64,000 nucleotides of DNA from Vulcanimicrobiota bacterium (GTDB taxonomy: Bacteria; Vulcanimicrobiota; Vulcanimicrobiia; Eremiobacterales; Eremiobacteraceae), in NCBI GenBank assembly GCA_963805945.1, contig CAWDVP010000004.1, forward strand, positions 64,001-128,000, in the 5' to 3' direction. How positions within the stretch are numbered: the first letter of the stretch is position 1; the number at the start of each line of letters is the position of its first letter. Shown here one piece after another: positions 41,696-49,793 of this stretch. Made by a program: the position numbers and the translations under genes. Under the pieces are notes generated by a model. The model did no database searches. It was not told where the DNA came from and saw only the letters and a list, made by a program, of their open reading frames with translations.

Positions 41696-42490
41696 ATGGC
41701 GGACTTCAAAGGTAAGAACATCATCATCACCGGCGGCGGCAGCGGCTTGGGCGCTGCGATGGCCATACATCTCGCTGCATTGGGCGGGCGGGTCATCGTG
41801 GCCGGGCGGCGCCCGGAGATGCTCGCGGAAACGGTTGCCGCGATCGAGACCGCAGGCGGCAAGGCTGACGCCATACCGACCGACGTCCGCGTGCCCGAAC
41901 AGGTGCAGGCGCTCGTCGACGGCGTGGTCAGCAAGCACGGCAGCGTCGATTGCCTGGTCAACAACGCCGCCGGCAACTTCATCGTGCGCGCGGAAGAGCT
42001 CTCGCCGAACGGCTGGAACGCGGTGATCAACATCGTGCTCAACGGCACGTTCTATTGCTCGCGCGCCGTGGGCAAGGCGATGATCGCCGCCGGTCATGGC
42101 GGTTCGATCCTCAACATCGTCGCGGCGTACGCGTGGACCGGTGGACCCGGCACGATCCATTCCGCGGCGGCCAAGGCGGGCGTCATCTCGATGACGCAAA
42201 CGCTAGCGGTGGAGTGGGGCCATCACGGCATCCGCGTGAACGCGCTGTGTCCGGGCGTCGTGAACACGCCGGGCGCCGCCGCGAAGCTCTTCCCGACCGA
42301 GGCGATCCGCGATCGCATCGCGCGGCGCGTGCCGCTCGGCCGGCTCGAGACGTCTGACGAAGTCGCTAAGGCAGCCGCATATCTGCTGTCCGACGATGCG
42401 TCCTATGTCAACGGCGCGGTGCTGGTGGCCGACGGCGGCATGTGGCTCGATCAGGGATTGCTCGCCGCAAACGCCCCCGAAGGCATGTAG
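41696..42490 (+). CDS. SDR oxidoreductase, 2,4-dienoyl-CoA reductase-like
   Basis: TGGGSGLG, NNAAGNF, HSAAAKAG. Confidence 0.88.
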   Translation: MADFKGKNIIITGGGSGLGAAMAIHLAALGGRVIVAGRRPEMLAETVAAIETAGGKADAIPTDVRVPEQVQALVDGVVSKHGSVDCLVNNAAGNFIVRAEELSPNGWNAVINIVLNGTFYCSRAVGKAMIAAGHGGSILNIVAAYAWTGGPGTIHSAAAKAGVISMTQTLAVEWGHHGIRVNALCPGVVNTPGAAAKLFPTEAIRDRIARRVPLGRLETSDEVAKAAAYLLSDDASYVNGAVLVADGGMWLDQGLLAANAPEGM

Positions 42491-42512
42491 GGGTCGACCT
42501 TTAGGTCGACCC
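42486..42512. repeat. REP family A copy, supplies the SDR stop codon
   Basis: TGTAGGGGTCGACCTTTAGGTCGACCC. Confidence 0.88.
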
Positions 42513-42516
42513 AGGA

Positions 42517-42535
42517 ATTGAGACCCATTCTCAAT
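42517..42535. promoter_or_regulatory. Putative Fur/Zur box
   Basis: ATTGAGACC-C-ATTCTCAAT, similar to the palindrome at 57384. Confidence 0.65.
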
Positions 42536-42581
42536 AAGAAGGCCTGAAGAACCTTGCCCTTCGCGCCGATATTGTGGATAT

Positions 42582-43196
42582 ATGAGTGACCTCGCGCTGC
42601 GGATGACCCGCGGCCTCACCCCGATGTACGTCTGCCTGGTGGTGCTGGGCAGCATCGTCGCGCACTTGGCATCCGAATTCTTCTCCATGGGTTCCGAGGC
42701 GAGCGACATCGCGCTCTCGCCCAAGCATCTGTATCTCGGCGTCGCCGCGCTCGTCTGTGCGGCGGTCGTCGTGCTGCAAGCGCGTTCGCTACTGCGATCT
42801 TCCGAAGGCGCGCGCGACCTCAAGCGCCGGCTTCATCTCGGTCTGGAAGCGCTGCCCTTGCGCGGACGCGGCCTCGCGTTCTTGACGCTTACCGCAGGAC
42901 TCCAGCTCGCCATCGGCCTCGCGACGCAGTACGGCGAGGGCTGCCCGTTCTGCGGCCACGACGTGGCAGCGGGCGTCCTCGGCGCGCTGCTCACCGTCAT
43001 CGTGCTCGCGTTTGCGGGACGCTTCATCGGCGCCCGCTTGCCGTCAATCGCCGCGGCCATCGCTGCCCTCTTCATCGAACCTTCGACCAACGCACACGCG
43101 TTGTCATCGCTACGCGACGTCGCGTCGCCGGCGTTCTTCCGCTTCATCTGGTTCAGCCAGCTCTACAACCGCCCTCCGCCTTCCCTCTCGATCTAA
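42582..43196 (+). CDS. Membrane leader protein 1 (CxxC + C-terminal RPPP), putative arrest peptide
   Basis: About 4 TM, CPFCGH, ends NRPPPSLSI; directly upstream of a TonB-dependent receptor. Confidence 0.75.
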   Translation: MSDLALRMTRGLTPMYVCLVVLGSIVAHLASEFFSMGSEASDIALSPKHLYLGVAALVCAAVVVLQARSLLRSSEGARDLKRRLHLGLEALPLRGRGLAFLTLTAGLQLAIGLATQYGEGCPFCGHDVAAGVLGALLTVIVLAFAGRFIGARLPSIAAAIAALFIEPSTNAHALSSLRDVASPAFFRFIWFSQLYNRPPPSLSI

Positions 43197-43224
43197 CGGC
43201 CGAAGCACTCGGCCGCGCCCAGGA

Positions 43225-43249
43225 CGGTCGAGTGAATTCGACCGCTCCA
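43225..43249. repeat. REP family B copy in the leader-receptor spacer
   Basis: CGGTCGAGTGAATTCGACCGCTCCA. Confidence 0.8.
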
Positions 43250-43268
43250 TTCATTTTGAGAGGGAGTC

Positions 43269-45638
43269 ATGTCATACCATCTCTTCAGCCGCCCGCTGTG
43301 GGCGGCGCTAGCGCTCGCCGGCGTGCTCGCTATGCCGTCGGTCGGCGCGTGCGCCGGAGCGTTTCTGACCGGCTCGGTGACGCTCGACGGCAAACCCGCC
43401 GCCGGTGCGACGGTCACCGCCACGGGCAACAACCTCGTGCAGACGAAGCGCACCGATGCACAGGGACGCTTCAGCTTCAGCACGCTCCAACCGGGCGCGT
43501 ACGCGCTCGACGCGGCGTGGAACGATCGGCGCGCGCATCGCTCGATCGAGCTGTCGGCGAGCGGCGCCGATGTCTCGCTGGAACTTGATCCGAAGAACAT
43601 CGGCAGCATCAAAGTCACCGCGTCGAGCGCCGCGCCCATCAGGGGCGCCGGCACCGACGTCACGCTCAACTCGACGATGCTCACCCGCACGCCGGCCGGC
43701 GGCAGCTTCCCGGAATTGCTCGTGCAGTTGCCCGGCGCGGCGCGCGGGGCCAACGGCGTGGTCCATATCAACGGCGATCACGGCGACATCAACTACATCG
43801 TCGACGGGGCCTCCATCCCGCAAGCGCTCAACCGCGTCATCGGCACCGAGTTCGACGCGAACGACGTCGCGTTCGTCGACGTGCTGCAGGGCGCGTATCC
43901 CGCGCAATACGGAGAGCGTTTCGCCAGCGTGCTCAACATCAGCACGCGCACGGGCACCGGGCCGCCCGGCGCGATCCTCGATCTCTCCGGCGGCTCGTAC
44001 GCGAACTACGATTCGACCGTCGGGTACCACGGCCCGGTCGGTGCGGGCTCACTGGTGCTGGCGGTCCGTGACGGACGCTCGAGCTACGGCCTGGACCCGC
44101 CCGATCTGACCTCGCTTCACAACGACGCGAGCGATGCCAGCCAGTTCCTCCGCTACACGGTGCCTGTCGGCCACGACTACCTCAACTTCACCATGTCGCA
44201 TTCGTATCAGACGTTCCAGGTCCCGATCGACGTGCTCGGCGGCCAGCCCGCGAGCAGCGACGACAACGAGACACAGAACGACACCTTTGCGACGCTGCAG
44301 TACCGCCGCGCCATCGCGGACCGCGGTTCGCTGTCGCTGGGCGCGGCGTATAAGCGCTCGCAGATCCGCGACTTCGGCGATCCGCTGCCCGATTGGGCGT
44401 TCGGCATAAACACGTGGGTCGGCAGCGGCGGGCTGCCGTCGGACTGCTTCAACGCGCTCACGATCACCAATTACGCCAACAGCACGTGCGCCTACACGCT
44501 TGCCGACAACCGCACCGCCACCGATTACAAGTTCAATCTCGACGACGCGCTGCGCGGCGGCGCGCACGAGGTGCGCTGGGGCGCGCTTTATGACGTGACG
44601 CTCGTGCCCAAGCTCTACGACATCACGCTGCAACCGGGCAACTATCTCGCACCGATGTTCACGCCGGGGACGCCGCTCGCGCCGTATCCGGTGATCGACA
44701 ACGCGCCGAACGTCGGCCACACCGAAGCCGCATACCTTCAAGACAGCTGGCGCATGGGCCAGGCGTATCAGCTCGACTACGGGCTGCGCGTCGACGCGTT
44801 CCAGATCTTTTCGGATCAGTTCGACCAGGGCTTTTCCATGTTCAGCCCGCGCATCAAGCTGACGCGCTTCTTCAGTCCGCGCGCGAGCGCGTACGCCTAC
44901 TACGGCCGCTTCTTCACGCCGTTCTCGTTCGAGAACGTGTCGCCGAGCGCGGCGTACCTGCTCAACCTGCCGCTTCAGCCGACGCTCGCTCAGTTCGACC
45001 TCAAGCCGCAGCGCGACTCCGATTACGAGATCGGCGGCCACTTGCCGCTCGGCAAGGGCGATCTCGGCTTGCGCGTGATGCAGAAAGACGCGACTGATCT
45101 CATCGACGACACGCAAGTAGGCGTGACGCTGCTGCACCAGGACATCAACTACCAGCTCGGGCGGATAGCCACGCAGTCGGCGTACTACCAGCAGACGCTT
45201 GCGCACGGCGGTCGTTTTTATGTGACCGGCAACCACACGTATTCGGTCAACAAAGGCTGTGAGACGCAGCTGTTGGCGCCGTGCTTCGGCTCGTCGACGG
45301 ATTGGACGCCAGCCGACCACATGCAGGCGTGGGGCGCCACCTCAGGGATCGTGCTCAACGACGCGCGCGGCGGCTGGTTCTCGATCGACGGCGAGTACGG
45401 GACCGGGCTATCGTCAGCGGGTTGCTCCGCCGCGACGCCGGGCTTCTGCGAATACACGCCGCATCTCACGTTCAACGCGGTGAAGGGCTTCGCGATCGGA
45501 CCGAAGACCGTGGCGACGGTGGGGATCGGCAACCTGCTCAACCATCAGTTCTTCATCACGTATCTCAACGCGCAGGGCAATCATTACTACCCGCCGCTCA
45601 CCGTGAACGTCGGCCTGCGCTTCGGCGTAAGCCGCTGA
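43269..45638 (+). CDS. TonB-dependent receptor 1 with N-terminal carboxypeptidase-regulatory-like domain
   Basis: Signal peptide, plug motifs YIVDG and GAYPAQYG, barrel strands, NLLN, terminal VGLRF. Confidence 0.9.
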   Translation: MSYHLFSRPLWAALALAGVLAMPSVGACAGAFLTGSVTLDGKPAAGATVTATGNNLVQTKRTDAQGRFSFSTLQPGAYALDAAWNDRRAHRSIELSASGADVSLELDPKNIGSIKVTASSAAPIRGAGTDVTLNSTMLTRTPAGGSFPELLVQLPGAARGANGVVHINGDHGDINYIVDGASIPQALNRVIGTEFDANDVAFVDVLQGAYPAQYGERFASVLNISTRTGTGPPGAILDLSGGSYANYDSTVGYHGPVGAGSLVLAVRDGRSSYGLDPPDLTSLHNDASDASQFLRYTVPVGHDYLNFTMSHSYQTFQVPIDVLGGQPASSDDNETQNDTFATLQYRRAIADRGSLSLGAAYKRSQIRDFGDPLPDWAFGINTWVGSGGLPSDCFNALTITNYANSTCAYTLADNRTATDYKFNLDDALRGGAHEVRWGALYDVTLVPKLYDITLQPGNYLAPMFTPGTPLAPYPVIDNAPNVGHTEAAYLQDSWRMGQAYQLDYGLRVDAFQIFSDQFDQGFSMFSPRIKLTRFFSPRASAYAYYGRFFTPFSFENVSPSAAYLLNLPLQPTLAQFDLKPQRDSDYEIGGHLPLGKGDLGLRVMQKDATDLIDDTQVGVTLLHQDINYQLGRIATQSAYYQQTLAHGGRFYVTGNHTYSVNKGCETQLLAPCFGSSTDWTPADHMQAWGATSGIVLNDARGGWFSIDGEYGTGLSSAGCSAATPGFCEYTPHLTFNAVKGFAIGPKTVATVGIGNLLNHQFFITYLNAQGNHYYPPLTVNVGLRFGVSR

Positions 45639-45665
45639 TGTAGGGGTCGACCTTTAGGTCGACCC
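45639..45665. repeat. REP family A copy, contains the stop of the convergent MauE gene
   Basis: TGTAGGGGTCGACCTTTAGGTCGACCC. Confidence 0.88.
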
Positions 45666-46094
45666 TTCGACCGGCCTCCGCCACGACCACCACATCAGAT
45701 AGATCGCGGGGATGATCGCCGCGCCGTCGCGCGCGATCGTCCACCAGGTTACCGGGTCGGTCTCGCGTGGCCCGAAGCAGCCGCACGGAGTCGGGATGCC
45801 GCGCACCACCACGGACGCGAGCGCCGCGATGAACACGAGCAGCACTGCGACCGCCACCACTGAGACGATGCGCAACTGCCAGCCGAGCAGCAGGTACACG
45901 CCCAGCACTATCTCAAGCAACGGCAAAGCGATGGCGGCGAAGCCGACGAATTGCGCCGGCAGATCGAGCCGGAAGGCGACGATCGTGGACCCGAGATCCG
46001 GCGCATGGCCCATCTTGAGGACGCCGGCGGCGATGAACACCAGCCCGACGATGATCCGGGCGATGAGGGGCAGCACGTGAAGAAGACGAGCCAA
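45654..46094 (-). CDS. MauE/DoxX family redox membrane protein
   Basis: ARIIVGLVFIAAGVLK, LPLLEI, CGCFG; start 46094 or 46076. Confidence 0.88.
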   Translation of the reverse strand: MARLLHVLPLIARIIVGLVFIAAGVLKMGHAPDLGSTIVAFRLDLPAQFVGFAAIALPLLEIVLGVYLLLGWQLRIVSVVAVAVLLVFIAALASVVVRGIPTPCGCFGPRETDPVTWWTIARDGAAIIPAIYLMWWSWRRPVEGST

Positions 46095-46721
46095 GCATCA
46101 CAACCTTCCGCGAAGCCGACGACGGGACCGCGATGGGGCACCATTTTGCCAGTCATCGCGGGCGTCCTCGTCGTCATCGCGATCGCCGTATATGCGATCA
46201 CGCAATCCCACAAGCTGCCGAGCGCGGCCGTCGAGCCGAACGCGCTGCCGTCGGTGCCGCCGCCGATCAAAGTCGGCGCGCGTGCGCCCGCGTTCTCGGT
46301 GCAGACGCCGCTCGGCGCCGTCTCCAACGACACGTTCGCCGGCAAACCGTACATGGTCGAGCTGTTCGCCACATGGTGCCCGCATTGCCAGCGCATGACG
46401 GCCGTGCTGCGCTCGCTGCGCGCGAAACTGCCGGAGTCGCGCTTCGGCATGGTCTCCGTCACCGGCTCGCCGTACGCCGCAGGCTCGACGCAGGGTGCCC
46501 CCATCGCCGAGAGTCAAGCGGACGTCGACGCGTTCGACAAGTACTTCAACGTCACATGGCTGTCCGTGTGGGATCCGCAACTCACGACGGCGGCGGCGTT
46601 CGGGCTCAACGGCTTTCCGACGATCTTCATCGTGGACGCCAAGGGCACGATTGTCTATACTGCAAGCGGTGAGCTCCCCGAGGCGACGCTGCTCGCCGCC
46701 GCCCGCAAGGCAGGCGCCTGA
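46077..46721 (+). CDS. Membrane-anchored TlpA/redoxin thioredoxin
   Basis: One TM, APAF, FATWCPHC, GFPTIFIVD. Confidence 0.88.
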   Translation: MKKTSQASQPSAKPTTGPRWGTILPVIAGVLVVIAIAVYAITQSHKLPSAAVEPNALPSVPPPIKVGARAPAFSVQTPLGAVSNDTFAGKPYMVELFATWCPHCQRMTAVLRSLRAKLPESRFGMVSVTGSPYAAGSTQGAPIAESQADVDAFDKYFNVTWLSVWDPQLTTAAAFGLNGFPTIFIVDAKGTIVYTASGELPEATLLAAARKAGA

Positions 46722-46801
46722 CCTTAGAATCCGCTGAGATGTCCACCACGCGGAGCACGGCCACAGGGGGCGCGCGCCCTACGGCCTAATGTATATGCAT
46801 C

Positions 46802-47473
46802 ATGAGGAACCGGGAGGTCTGCTGGCTGTTGATCGGAGCGGTGGCACTTGGCGCATCGCTCGCGGGCCACGCCGTGCAACTCGCGATCGAGTCCGCTCAC
46901 CTCTTCGGCGGCGTGCCTGCGCGCTACAGCCACGTGCTGCAGACACCGATCTCGCTCATCATGTTCGGCGCACTCGTCGTCGCCGCGCTGTTCATCGCGC
47001 GCGGTATCCTCGAAAGCGTCTATGACGAATTCGGCGGTGCCGACTGGCTCGTGCCGGCGCTCGATGCCGTCGCGGCGATCGCGCCCGGCCGCCTCATCGC
47101 ATTGGTCGTCGGTCTGCAGCTCGCGTCGCTCATCGGCGGCGAGCTGACCGAGCAAGCGCTGTCGTCCTACGGCGCATTCGGCTTGGGAGCCATCTTCGGC
47201 CCCGGTCATCTCAGCGCGCCATTCGTGCACGTCGCCATCGGCACGCTCGCCGCGTGGCTGCTGCTCGCGTTCGCGCGCGCCGTCTGCGCTCGCGTTGCGG
47301 ATATCGCTCGCTTCGCGCGCTCGCTCATCGCGTGGGTCTCCCGGCCCGCGCGCGTCCGTTGTGCTCCGGCGCTGCGCGTCCTCGCGCTCGCCTCGGAGTC
47401 ACCCGCACCACCGCTGCTGGCGCGACACATCGCCAGCCGTCCGCCTCCGGCCGCCGCTACGCTTGTAGCATAG
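46802..47473 (+). CDS. Membrane leader protein 2 (His-containing, C-terminal RPPP), putative arrest peptide
   Basis: About 4 TM, shares GLQLA with leader 1, ends HIASRPPPAAATLVA; directly upstream of a TonB-dependent receptor. Confidence 0.72.
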   Translation: MRNREVCWLLIGAVALGASLAGHAVQLAIESAHLFGGVPARYSHVLQTPISLIMFGALVVAALFIARGILESVYDEFGGADWLVPALDAVAAIAPGRLIALVVGLQLASLIGGELTEQALSSYGAFGLGAIFGPGHLSAPFVHVAIGTLAAWLLLAFARAVCARVADIARFARSLIAWVSRPARVRCAPALRVLALASESPAPPLLARHIASRPPPAAATLVA

Positions 47474-47525
47474 GCGGCCAAATCCGGCTTCCCGCCTTTT
47501 GGCCGCCTCCCCATAGGGTGGAGGT

Positions 47526-49793
47526 ATGGTCTTGCGTTTTCGTATTTTCTTTTTCATTTCCGTCGCATGCGCCGCGGCGCTCGCAGCGGTCGGCTCATTC
47601 GCACCGGCGTCCGCGAGCACGCTCGGCGCGATCCGCGGCACCGTCTACGATTCCGCCGGGCATCCGCTGCAGCACGCCAAGGTCGTCATCGTGGCCGGCG
47701 TCGGCACCAAGGACAGCACGGCGACCGATGCGTCCGGACGCTACATCTTCCCGCGCGTCGAGTTCGATACGTACACGGTGACCGTCACCGCGGCGGGCCT
47801 GCCGCCGAACAGCCAGATCGTGACCGTCGCGAGCGGCACCGTCACGGTACTTGATTTCCACCTCTCGGAGAAGAAGCTCGCCAGCGTCGTCACCGTCGCC
47901 AAAGCCGGGCACCCGGTGAGCGTGACCGTGATGACGCCGCAGATGATCCAGACGCTGCCGAGCAACTTCAAGCTCGCGAGCGTCACCGAGACGGTGCCCG
48001 GGGTCGTGCCGTTCTCGTACGACGAACCGGTGGTGCGCGGCTTCCACGGCGTCGCGTACTACATCGACGGCATCCCGATCCCGCAGACATCGTCGTCCGC
48101 GTTCGCCGAGGTCCTCGATCCGCGCGATATCGGCTCGGTGGAGGTCTACACAGGCTCGTTCCCCGCCGAGTACGGCGGCAGCCGCCAGGGCGGCGTGGTC
48201 AACATCATCTCCAAACGGCCGAGCGGGAACGGCGGCGACATCACGCTCACCGGCGGCAACTACGCCACCGGCGCCACGCAGCTCAGCGAATCGTTCGGCG
48301 GTCCGACCCTCAAAGCGTACGTATCGCTCAACTTCGACCGCACCGACCGCGGCCTCGATTCACCGACCGCGCAGCCCATCCATGACGCCGCGAGCCAATC
48401 GAACGAATTCATGCGGCTCACATATGTCCCCGACAGCCGCGACTCATGGGCGTTGCATTTCTCCAATCTGTTCTCGACGTTCCAGATCCCGATCGACACG
48501 AATCCGACCAGCGTGAGCTTCGCGCCGCAGGGAAGCGACGACTTGCAGTACGAGTACGCCCGCTATGCGAGCATCGTCTACAACCGCCTGAGCGCGGACG
48601 GCCAAGGCTACCTCGAGATCTCGCCCTGGTATAACCGCAGCCAGGTGAAGTTCTTCCCGGATCCGACCAACGATCTCGCGAGCGCCGCCATGGCGTCGAC
48701 CTTCCAGGATCGGGTCGGCACGTACTACGGGTTGACCGGGGCCTACTTCCGCAGCTGGACGAAGGACAATCTGAAGATCGGCTTCACCGGCGCGGTCGAG
48801 GACTTCACCAGCGCGTTCAACATCCAGTTCATCGATCCCACGACGATGATGTTGCAGCAGTTCAACGACAACGCGGCGCAGACCGGCACGAACTTCGGCA
48901 TCTACGCCGAAGACAAGATGATCCTGTCACCCATGTTCACCACGAACATCGGCCTGCGCTACGACCGCTCGACGGGTTTCACCGACGGCAACCAGGTGAG
49001 TCCGCGCTTCGAGCTCGATTACCTCGCCAATCCCAAGGAGACGGTCCATTTCTATTACGGACGCTTGTACGCGGCGCCGGCGCTCGAAGACACGCGGCGC
49101 AGCGCCGTCGTCATCGGCGGCGGCTCAGGCTTGCCGGTGTACGACCTCAAGCCCGAGACCGATTCGATCTACGAGTTCGGCTTTTCGCATCAGGTGACGC
49201 AGACGTCGAGATGGTACATCAACTATTGGGCGCGCTCCGTCGCCAACGTGCTCGACACGACCCAGATCGGCTCGACGCCGATCTTCACGATCTTCAATTC
49301 GACCTCCGGTCGCGCGCAAGGCATCGAGTTCAGCTACAGCGGGCAGGCGCAGAATCTCAACAGCTACTTCGTGTCGTATGGCCTCTCCGAGAGCCTTGCG
49401 TCGGGCATCTCGGGCGGCACGTTCCTGTTCTCTCCTGATCAGCTTCAGGGCGCCAATGGCTTCGCCCCGGAGGACCACGACCAGACTAACACGCTCAACA
49501 CCGCGTACACGTGGCGGCTGTCGAAGGACCGCCAGACCTGGACCTCGCTGCAGGCGATCTACGGCAGCGGCTATCCCGTGCAGTTCGAGAACGGACCGGG
49601 CAGGCTGCCCGCGCACTGGGAGCTCAACGCGTCGTACGGGCGCTTCGCGACGGGCGGGCATCTCGGCTACCAGCTGCAGGCGACCAACTTGACCAACAAC
49701 ATCTATCTCATCAAACTCAACAACGGCTTCAACACGACCCAATACGCGCGCGGCTTCCAGCTCACGGCGCAGATCACCGCGCCGATCCACTAG
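47526..49793 (+). CDS. TonB-dependent receptor 2 (paralog of receptor 1)
   Basis: Signal peptide, YYIDG, GSFPAEYGG, VVNIISK, DLKPE, NLTN. Confidence 0.9.
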   Translation: MVLRFRIFFFISVACAAALAAVGSFAPASASTLGAIRGTVYDSAGHPLQHAKVVIVAGVGTKDSTATDASGRYIFPRVEFDTYTVTVTAAGLPPNSQIVTVASGTVTVLDFHLSEKKLASVVTVAKAGHPVSVTVMTPQMIQTLPSNFKLASVTETVPGVVPFSYDEPVVRGFHGVAYYIDGIPIPQTSSSAFAEVLDPRDIGSVEVYTGSFPAEYGGSRQGGVVNIISKRPSGNGGDITLTGGNYATGATQLSESFGGPTLKAYVSLNFDRTDRGLDSPTAQPIHDAASQSNEFMRLTYVPDSRDSWALHFSNLFSTFQIPIDTNPTSVSFAPQGSDDLQYEYARYASIVYNRLSADGQGYLEISPWYNRSQVKFFPDPTNDLASAAMASTFQDRVGTYYGLTGAYFRSWTKDNLKIGFTGAVEDFTSAFNIQFIDPTTMMLQQFNDNAAQTGTNFGIYAEDKMILSPMFTTNIGLRYDRSTGFTDGNQVSPRFELDYLANPKETVHFYYGRLYAAPALEDTRRSAVVIGGGSGLPVYDLKPETDSIYEFGFSHQVTQTSRWYINYWARSVANVLDTTQIGSTPIFTIFNSTSGRAQGIEFSYSGQAQNLNSYFVSYGLSESLASGISGGTFLFSPDQLQGANGFAPEDHDQTNTLNTAYTWRLSKDRQTWTSLQAIYGSGYPVQFENGPGRLPAHWELNASYGRFATGGHLGYQLQATNLTNNIYLIKLNNGFNTTQYARGFQLTAQITAPIH

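Follow-up and report, generated by a model that had tools for sequence, protein, structure and literature searches.

Does the end of a membrane-protein gene control the translation of the outer-membrane receptor gene behind it? The question is raised by a locus of a Vulcanimicrobiota bacterium (family Eremiobacteraceae; NCBI GenBank assembly GCA_963805945.1, contig CAWDVP010000004.1), of which positions 64,001 to 128,000 of the forward strand were analysed; this stretch of 64,000 nucleotides is called the window, and coordinates are counted from its first base. The open reading frame (ORF) up1 (42582..43196, + strand) ends with codons for Asn-Arg-Pro-Pro-Pro (NRPPP) and a short tail, and is followed by receptor 1 (43269..45638, + strand), whose product, by its Pfam matches, is an outer-membrane protein that resembles TonB-dependent receptors and has a CarboxypepD_reg domain at its N terminus. 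A preliminary description of the window had suggested that a ribosome stalled on the RPPP codons would free the ribosome-binding site of receptor 1. We consider it probable (roughly 0.65) that up1 and receptor 1 form an arrest switch of the SecM/CruR type, in which a presumed arrest or long pause at RPPP, governed by a presumed signal, unmasks the receptor's Shine-Dalgarno (SD) sequence. The RNA part of this reading, a conserved switch at the junction of the two genes, is very probably real.

Results

The receptor SD is paired with the end of up1

The anti-SD strand TTCCCTCTCGA (43181..43191, + strand) runs from the final base of the last Pro codon through the Ser-Leu-Ser codons into an Ile codon, of which it takes the first base. 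Its start lies at the third base of the last Pro codon, the codon named in the preliminary description, and all coordinates given there were correct. Its partner, the SD strand TTGAGAGGGAG of receptor 1 (43256..43266, + strand), ends 2 nt before the start codon ATG (43269-43271). Folding of 43150-43290 gave a minimum free energy (MFE) of -46.6 kcal/mol (z = -2.78; 1 of 200 shuffled sequences was as good), with the helix enclosing two hairpins, and folding of 43170-43271 gave -44.2 kcal/mol (z = -3.78; 0 of 200 as good). Both folds recovered exactly the proposed helix of 11 consecutive pairs, two of them G-U, and it was present in the MFE fold and in the centroid. In the ensemble of 43120-43300, the SD strand was paired with the anti-SD strand at a probability of 0.92, and the SD core was unpaired at a probability of 0.006. 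The folding models thus show that in free mRNA the codons 3-8 nt beyond the final Pro codon of NRPPP pair with the receptor SD and bury it.

At the position of the Leu codon within the anti-SD strand, 15 of the 16 Leu codons found are CTC, compared with 47% CTC genome-wide. The duplex energy is unexceptional in this GC-rich genome, which weighs against reading much into the pairing as such: 21 of 115 neighbouring same-strand ORF pairs, taken from a rough ORF set, reach -17.8 kcal/mol or better. The window alone therefore proves nothing, and the case rests on the conservation and covariation of the helix in orthologs.

The helix is conserved and covaries among orthologs

Of 24 genomes belonging to the same family, 20 have an up1 ortholog (33-68% identity); a search of 16 genomes from the other families in the class found none. 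A receptor-1 homolog was located downstream of up1 in 19 of the 20 loci, always adjacent and co-directional, which is the position occupied by arrest peptides relative to their target genes. The pair-1 counts include two loci, L007 and L019, and those for the second pair described below include L033 and L037, whose genomes are flagged unpublished. The receptor starts in the orthologs were picked by best SD match, one choice being altered by hand. Upstream of the chosen start, an SD-like GGAG or GAGG was present in 19/19 orthologs, and the SD core paired with the tail between the Arg codon and the stop at a probability of 0.64 or more in every one of the 19 loci, 18 of which reached 0.81 or more.

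The pairing strands vary by genus, yet each fits its own partner, as in CTCTCCAAGTC/GACTTGGAGAG, CTCCAGTCTG/CAGACTGGAG and GCTCCCG/CGGGAGC. Cognate tail/SD duplexes of the 19 loci had a mean energy of -18.7 kcal/mol vs. -12.7 kcal/mol for non-cognate ones, a value that 0 of 20000 permutations reached. With one locus per genus (8 genera) the means were -19.0 and -12.3 kcal/mol, respectively (2 of 40320 permutations), and without L007 and L019 they were -18.9 and -12.9 kcal/mol. The raw MAFFT alignment gave a covariation score of 0.284, compared with 0.177 for shuffles (0/500 reached the observed score) and at most 0.169 for controls with slid partners. Because MAFFT failed to bring 8 of the 19 junctions into register with one consensus helix, the duplex-based tests and a covariance-model realignment were added. 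In the realignment (27 distinct rows), 10 of the 11 pairs change on both sides, and the score was 0.315 vs. 0.172 for shuffles (0/500) and at most 0.133 for slid controls, with the reservation that this alignment is fitted to the structure and so biased towards it.

The covariance model also recovered junctions on which it had not been trained, namely those of L020, L048, L050, L055 and L056 and three up2/receptor-2 junctions. L020 (genome G020) is the up1 ortholog that has no receptor-1 match inside the available locus; its junction element was found at bases 1424-1524 of the minus strand (22.4 bits, E = 3e-4). The helix is conserved and covaries across about 8 genera. The pairing was present in the ensemble of the window and in 19/19 ortholog loci, with compensatory changes, as the preliminary description had anticipated for a functional element.

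The NRPPP motif is conserved as a peptide

The proposed arrest motif is encoded at 43167..43181 (+ strand), with the RPPP codons CGC (43170-72), CCT (43173-75), CCG (43176-78) and CCT (43179-81) in the frame of the ORF 42582..43196; its assignment rests on the orthologs and database relatives. NRPPP is invariant in 20/20 up1 orthologs and lies 4-12 residues from the stop, a C-terminal motif of the R-x-P-P kind. RPPP was found in 106 of 109 up1 relatives, the exceptions being two fragments and one protein with a different end. Among 137 representatives obtained by a more exhaustive search, 113 carry RPPP within their last 30 residues and the rest are mostly fragments; in two distant representatives of the 137, N-R-A-P-P takes the place of NRPPP. 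The codons differ between orthologs under the fixed residues (5 Arg codons, and all 4 Pro codons at each Pro position), and selection therefore acts on the peptide. The tail around NRPPP is otherwise variable and modelled at low confidence, apart from an invariant Trp at -7 and a nearly invariant Leu at -3. Of the Pro codons at RPPP, 23 of 57 in pair 1 and 22 of 42 in pair 2 are the rare CCT or CCA, compared with 11.6% genome-wide.

In the rough ORF set of this genome, the ratio of observed to expected occurrences was 2.66 for PPP, 7.2 for TPPP and 1.0 for RPPP, XPPP being over-represented in general. RPPP occurs 6 times in this set, and two of these are up1 and up2. A scan for C-terminal PPP across all ORFs was too noisy for use. 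A 471-aa ORF outside the window (genome G000, contig C2, 368472-369887, + strand) closes with RRAPPTCTL, with RAPP 4 residues from the stop; judged by its sequence, it may carry another arrest-type tail.

In E. coli, RPPP was previously reported to stall ribosomes more strongly than any other XPPP and to be under-represented (PMC4176338). In ApdP, the A132P change, which creates RPPP, gave strong arrest in B. subtilis and intermediate arrest in E. coli, and RxPP variants with G, A, S or P at x came out of a selection as arrest-inducing; arrests at RAPP and RGPP are reported to resist elongation factor P (EF-P) (PMC12992588). RPPP is also counted among the RAPP-like sequences searched for in PMC10987492.

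The helix is anchored to RPPP and is opened by a modelled ribosome

In 15 of the 19 loci, the SD-pairing bases begin at nt 15-16 counted from the Arg codon, 3-4 nt past the last Pro codon. Over the 19 loci, the position of the anti-SD has a standard deviation of 3.2 nt relative to the Arg codon vs. 6.7 nt relative to the stop codon. RPPP, rather than the stop codon, is the anchor of the helix. In 5 loci the stop codon is located at nt 40, and a terminating ribosome would therefore leave the anti-SD core uncovered.

The P- and A-site assignment at RPPP was taken over from PMC10951233. A footprint of -12 to +15 from the second Pro codon spans 43164-43191, which includes the entire anti-SD strand. 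When this footprint was placed on the second or third Pro codon, the probability of pairing dropped from 0.92 to 0.00; with a ribosome 26 nt upstream it was kept at 0.92. The folding comparison with and without a footprint, which the preliminary description had put forward beforehand, thus agrees with its idea that a ribosome stalled on RPPP covers the anti-SD and frees the receptor site. In the orthologs, a footprint on RPPP lowered the mean cost of opening the SD from 12.6 to 5.8 kcal/mol (mean drop 6.7 kcal/mol), and the drop was at least 3 kcal/mol in 17 of the 19 pair-1 loci. In these folding models the masking stem is overlapped by the stalled ribosome, as in RAPP-like arrest peptides.

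up1 encodes a four-helix membrane protein

The preliminary description had called up1 "leader 1"; it is no short leader peptide but a conserved ORF of 204 aa in the ORF list, with a possible alternative true start at ATG 42603. A TTGCCC-17 nt-GATATA sequence stands directly against ATG 42582 (42554-42603) and was not called by the consensus promoter scan; if it were a promoter, up1 would start at ATG 42603. The promoter and terminator scan of 42300-43400 yielded no promoter-like site and one weak terminator-like site within a repetitive extragenic palindromic (REP) hairpin, no more than in shuffled sequences. An Rfam scan of 42300-47700 (E up to 1) gave one chance miRNA match and nothing else.

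Four membrane helices are predicted in the product, which also has an EGCPFCGHD loop and a C-terminal tail closing with W..LYNRPPPSLSI. On the Kyte-Doolittle scale, up1 orthologs contain 3-4 hydrophobic segments, in keeping with the membrane signal of RAPP-like arrest peptides. An AlphaFold2 model built from the ortholog alignment (mean pLDDT 81.7) has four long helices that extend to about residue 164, after which the tail (from about residue 165) is modelled at low confidence. A topology with both termini inside and the loop (residues 119-127) in the periplasm fits the charge distribution under the positive-inside rule. The loop E-G-C-P-F-C-G-H-D is nearly invariant in the orthologs; among the 109 relatives, CPFCGH occurs in 63 and CPLCGH in 11, and APIAGH, CPFGGH and others were also found. 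In 100 of 111 proteins, the His-Asp of the loop and the Arg of RPPP are spaced 71 residues apart.

In Pfam and NCBIfam, up1 matched no family, Foldseek gave no match of the up1 model to the PDB at E up to 0.001, and the ESM Atlas returned just unnamed "hypothetical protein" clusters. The 109 relatives came from a profile search of 5.8 billion proteins; those with names are labelled "hypothetical protein", with the exception of one "heme exporter protein D", and the organism names shown were Candidatus Eremiobacteraceae or Eremiobacteraeota. The exhaustive profile search gave the 137 cluster representatives mentioned above. A related-locus search of genome contigs gave 17 loci, mostly titled Eremiobacterota or Vulcanimicrobiota and a few with other labels; the range was no wider. 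Among sequencing runs, no RNA run containing the sequence was listed, and the DNA runs listed contained small shares.

A second pair has the same design

A search for paralogues in the window's own genome returned the two pairs and nothing more. The second upstream gene, up2 (46802..47473, + strand), encodes a paralogue of 223 aa ending in ..IASRPPPAAATLVA, in which ASRPPP is followed by 7 residues and the stop; the RPPP codons are located at 47438-47449. NCBIfam gave no match for up2. A profile-profile comparison of up1 and up2 gave a probability of 93% (E = 3e-7); BLASTP aligned the RPPP stretch alone, and the kinship needed profiles to be seen. RPPP is present in 20 of 23 loci with an up2 match.

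Within the RPPP codons of up2, GCCTCCG (47443..47449, + strand) pairs with the SD region GGGTGGAGG of receptor 2 (47517..47525, + strand), as indicated by the fold and by the orthologs. Receptor 2 (47526..49793, + strand) is a TonB-dependent receptor by Pfam (Plug 7.4e-14, barrel 8.2e-15, CarboxypepD_reg 4.2e-17). It probably starts at TTG 47532 rather than at ATG 47526, because the SD GGAGG is ~7 nt from the TTG and 1 nt from the ATG and because orthologs start equivalently with MRF. Folding of 47420-47560 gave an MFE of -58.0 kcal/mol (z = -4.28; 0 of 200 shuffles as good). Cognate duplexes of pair 2 had a mean of -19.4 vs. -16.4 kcal/mol for non-cognate ones (3 of 20000 permutations; 17 of 5040 with one locus per genus). 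The SD was paired to the tail at a probability of at least 0.84 in 12 of 14 loci, and the drop in opening cost was at least 3 kcal/mol in 10 of 14. Pair 2 follows the same design as pair 1, with weaker support that points in the same direction.

In several genera, pairs 1 and 2 are divergent neighbours. In genome G002 (loci L027 and L042), the up2 ortholog is interrupted by one TGA and a shifted frame, with the RPPP tail in another frame; either a pseudogene or a mistake in the assembly could explain this.

Spacer hairpins, receptor domains and neighbouring genes

Two hairpins lie between the helix strands of pair 1. Hairpin 1, CGGCCGA/TCGGCCG (43197..43215, + strand; arms 43197-43203 and 43209-43215), has a pattern that occurs just 2 times in the genome and is not conserved in orthologs. 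The second, CGGTCGA/TCGACCG (43225..43244, + strand; arms 43225-43231 and 43238-43244), is of the REP type: CGGTCGA-N4-8-TCGACCG is found 151 times across the 2.3-Mb genome (the pattern has 151-194 copies), usually followed by CTCCA, and is absent from most orthologous spacers. The preliminary description had the two hairpins bring the helix strands together. Both do fold and the second is a genuine REP, but they are not conserved, and their role as functional "clamps" was rejected. We leave the inner hairpins out of the mechanism because they are unconserved, the spacer between up1 and receptor 1 ranges from 32 to 107 nt in orthologs, and one of the hairpins is an insertion of a mobile REP.

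Two families of REP-like hairpins were noticed, CGGTCGA..TCGACCG(CTCCAT), with the 151-194 copies given above, and GGGTCGA..TCGACCC(CTACA), a copy of which lies at 42491-42512, just after an SDR gene. The flank GCTCCA of the CGGTCGA family (43225-43250) is itself anti-SD-like.

Both receptors have the Plug and barrel domains of TonB-dependent receptors. For receptor 1 the barrel (TonB_dep_Rec_b-barrel) was matched at 2e-12 (48.1 bits, cut-off 27) and CarboxypepD_reg at 6.3e-10, and the Plug was marginal at 22.6 bits, slightly below its cut-off of 23.9; receptor 2 is well above the cut-offs. Between the two sensor/receptor pairs, 45654-46721 holds a gene for a MauE/DoxX membrane protein (minus strand) and one for a TlpA-like thioredoxin/redoxin.

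Discussion

A proposed arrest switch

We propose that a ribosome translating up1 would pause or arrest at RPPP and that the mRNA channel of the stalled ribosome (about +12 to +15 nt) would then occupy the anti-SD strand. The receptor SD would stay open during the stall and receptor 1 would be translated; once the stall is released, the ribosome would finish, the helix would re-form and receptor synthesis would end. More speculatively, the four-helix domain, including the periplasm-facing EGCPFCGHD loop, would be just out of the tunnel at the stall, and its folding, membrane insertion, or metal or redox binding could set the length of the stall. Such timing would mirror the binding of Cu to the CXXC of CruR, which relieves the RAPP arrest. 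That the polytopic membrane protein acts as its own co-translational sensor, with bundle folding or metal/redox binding in the loop at RPPP setting the lifetime of the arrest and gating the receptor, is a tentative addition that we hold with clearly less confidence than the switch. Given the MauE/DoxX and thioredoxin-like neighbours and the fixed spacing from loop to Arg, a metal or thiol-redox signal is a reasonable guess. The putative sensing residues have diverged between the pairs (Cys/His/Asp in one, His/Glu/Gln in the other), which on this tentative reading would suggest two ligands and one mechanism.

Several observations weigh against an arrest switch. The genome encodes EF-P, which relieves simple polyproline pauses (PMC4176338), and RPPP was just partially active in ApdA and in E. 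coli (PMC12992588). Since up1 is well conserved and confidently folded, NRPPP could be a functional motif of the protein. In the window, with a ribosome on RPPP, the SD core is just 0.22 unpaired and re-pairs with 43131-43146; the residual opening cost is 7.4 kcal/mol there and 5.8 kcal/mol on average across orthologs. The footprint brings little gain in 2 of 19 pair-1 and 4 of 14 pair-2 loci. A terminating ribosome in the window abolishes the helix too, and transit alone could therefore suffice. The two loop Cys are not invariant (CPFGGH, APIAGH and SPLLGH occur), and up2 lacks them.

Alternative explanations

The strongest alternative is simple translational coupling that involves no programmed arrest. 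Through the helix, receptor translation would depend on ribosomes that traverse the end of up1, which would fix the ratio of the two proteins, and NRPPP would be a functional motif of the mature membrane protein or, at most, an ordinary pause that EF-P relieves. In the models any ribosome over the tail, a terminating one included, abolishes the helix; up1 is a conserved, confidently folded four-helix protein and no disposable peptide; EF-P is present; and up1 and the receptor are always adjacent and co-directional. However, the anti-SD tracks RPPP (3.2 nt) and not the stop (6.7 nt), and in five loci the stop is too distant. NRPPP is invariant in two families that are otherwise weakly similar by profile, it sits in a variable, low-confidence tail, and two distant homologs have swapped it for the canonical arrest motif RAPP. 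Rare Pro codons are abundant in RPPP, which is the strongest published polyproline staller (PMC4176338). On this evidence we regard coupling alone as unlikely, though it is the alternative that survives best. Coupling by termination and reinitiation was considered and is unlikely because of the spacers of 32-107 nt.

It is considerably less probable that the main output is transcriptional polarity as in CruR, with a stalled ribosome shielding the C/T-rich end of up1 from Rho, release of the stall permitting Rho to terminate ahead of the receptor, and SD masking being secondary. The closest known system operates in this way (PMC9426467), Rho is encoded in the genome, and 43167-43196 is C/T-rich and G-poor; against this, the conserved, covarying feature is the helix with the SD itself, which a Rho mechanism does not need, and the spacers, at 32-107 nt, are both short and structured. 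That the complementarity arose by chance in a GC-rich genome and has no function is hardly credible even though 21 of 115 rough neighbouring-gene pairs reach equal duplex energy, since the pairing in 19/19 orthologs, the compensatory changes and the permutation and slid-partner controls contradict it, unless the choice of start codons created the ortholog helices.

Comparison with known systems

Among the papers returned by the literature searches, none described the up1 family and none combined "Eremiobacterota" with "arrest peptide". The preliminary description had cited secM-secA and mifM-yidC2 as precedents. The logic of their SD-masking stems is alike, but the nearest precedent is CruR-BfrG (PMC9426467). 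CruR (Bp2923, DUF2946/PF11162) of Bordetella pertussis is encoded by an upstream ORF with a CXXC motif and a C-terminal RAPP and controls the TonB-dependent transporter gene bfrG; once copper has relieved the arrest, transcription is terminated by Rho (PMC9426467). Like CruR, up1 is an upstream ORF whose C terminus carries an arrest-type R-x-P-P motif a few residues from the stop, has a Cys-x-x-Cys (CPFC in the window protein) at a fixed distance from that motif, heads an operon with a TonB-dependent outer-membrane receptor, and has a nascent chain that is proposed to sense the signal ending the stall. PF11162 did not match the window proteins at E up to 0.01, nor 20 + 20 members of the two families at E up to 5. 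up1 is 204 aa long with four membrane helices, whereas CruR has 145 aa and a signal peptide; its motif is RPPP (RAPP in 2 of 137 representatives) rather than RAPP, and the loop-to-motif spacing is 71 residues instead of 45. The Cys of up1 are not invariant and are missing from its paralogue up2. The conserved RNA feature of up1 masks the SD and would act on translation, in contrast to the Rho-dependent termination reported for CruR; the term "Shine-Dalgarno" has 0 occurrences in the text of the CruR paper (PMC9426467).

The opening of SD-masking stems by arrest has been described for RAPP-like arrest peptides (PMC10987492). SecM-secA, MifM-yidC2 and the RAPP-like "RQH" peptides found upstream of secDF or secA share with up1 a C-terminal arrest motif of the R-A-G/P-P type and a stalled ribosome, presumed in our case, that disrupts the stem sequestering the downstream SD (PMC10987492, PMC10951233), as well as an upstream product with a membrane or secretion signal. 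A conserved aromatic residue is located ~7-8 positions upstream of the Arg, Trp at -7 in up1 and W155 of SecM at -8 from R163 (PMC10987492). The locus differs in that the regulated gene encodes an outer-membrane receptor and no component of the Sec/YidC machinery, and in that up1 is a conserved polytopic membrane protein with the motif RPPP. RPPP, the context found in up1, is also the strongest XPPP context in E. coli for EF-P-dependent polyproline pauses (PMC4176338), but such pauses are generic and relieved by EF-P, and none is known to be coupled with a covarying helix that masks an SD.

TonB-dependent receptors are a leading class downstream of the RAPP/RGPP ORFs surveyed in PMC12992588. 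These ORFs resemble up1 in encoding membrane or secreted proteins of <300 aa that carry R-x-P-P close to their C terminus, upstream of a TonB-dependent receptor. The TonB-related class of the survey consists almost entirely of signal-peptide proteins, whereas up1 is polytopic. The survey as described there extracted RAPP and RGPP alone, and a family with RPPP would therefore escape it, which suggests that motif surveys limited to RAPP/RGPP overlook entire families.

Arrest-peptide switches have long been tied to Sec/YidC genes; CruR (2022) and the 2025 survey widened them to metal-uptake receptors, with RAPP/RGPP motifs and small exported peptides alone. To these switches the locus would add a motif of the RPPP type and a sensing module that is a conserved membrane protein of four helices. 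Compensatory changes in about 8 genera would contribute unusually clear comparative evidence for SD unmasking as the output, and the genome would supply a duplicated, diverged pair. The locus comes from a phylum nearly without experimental genetics, relatives being labelled Eremiobacterota or Vulcanimicrobiota, and offers a compact construct that is testable in heterologous hosts.

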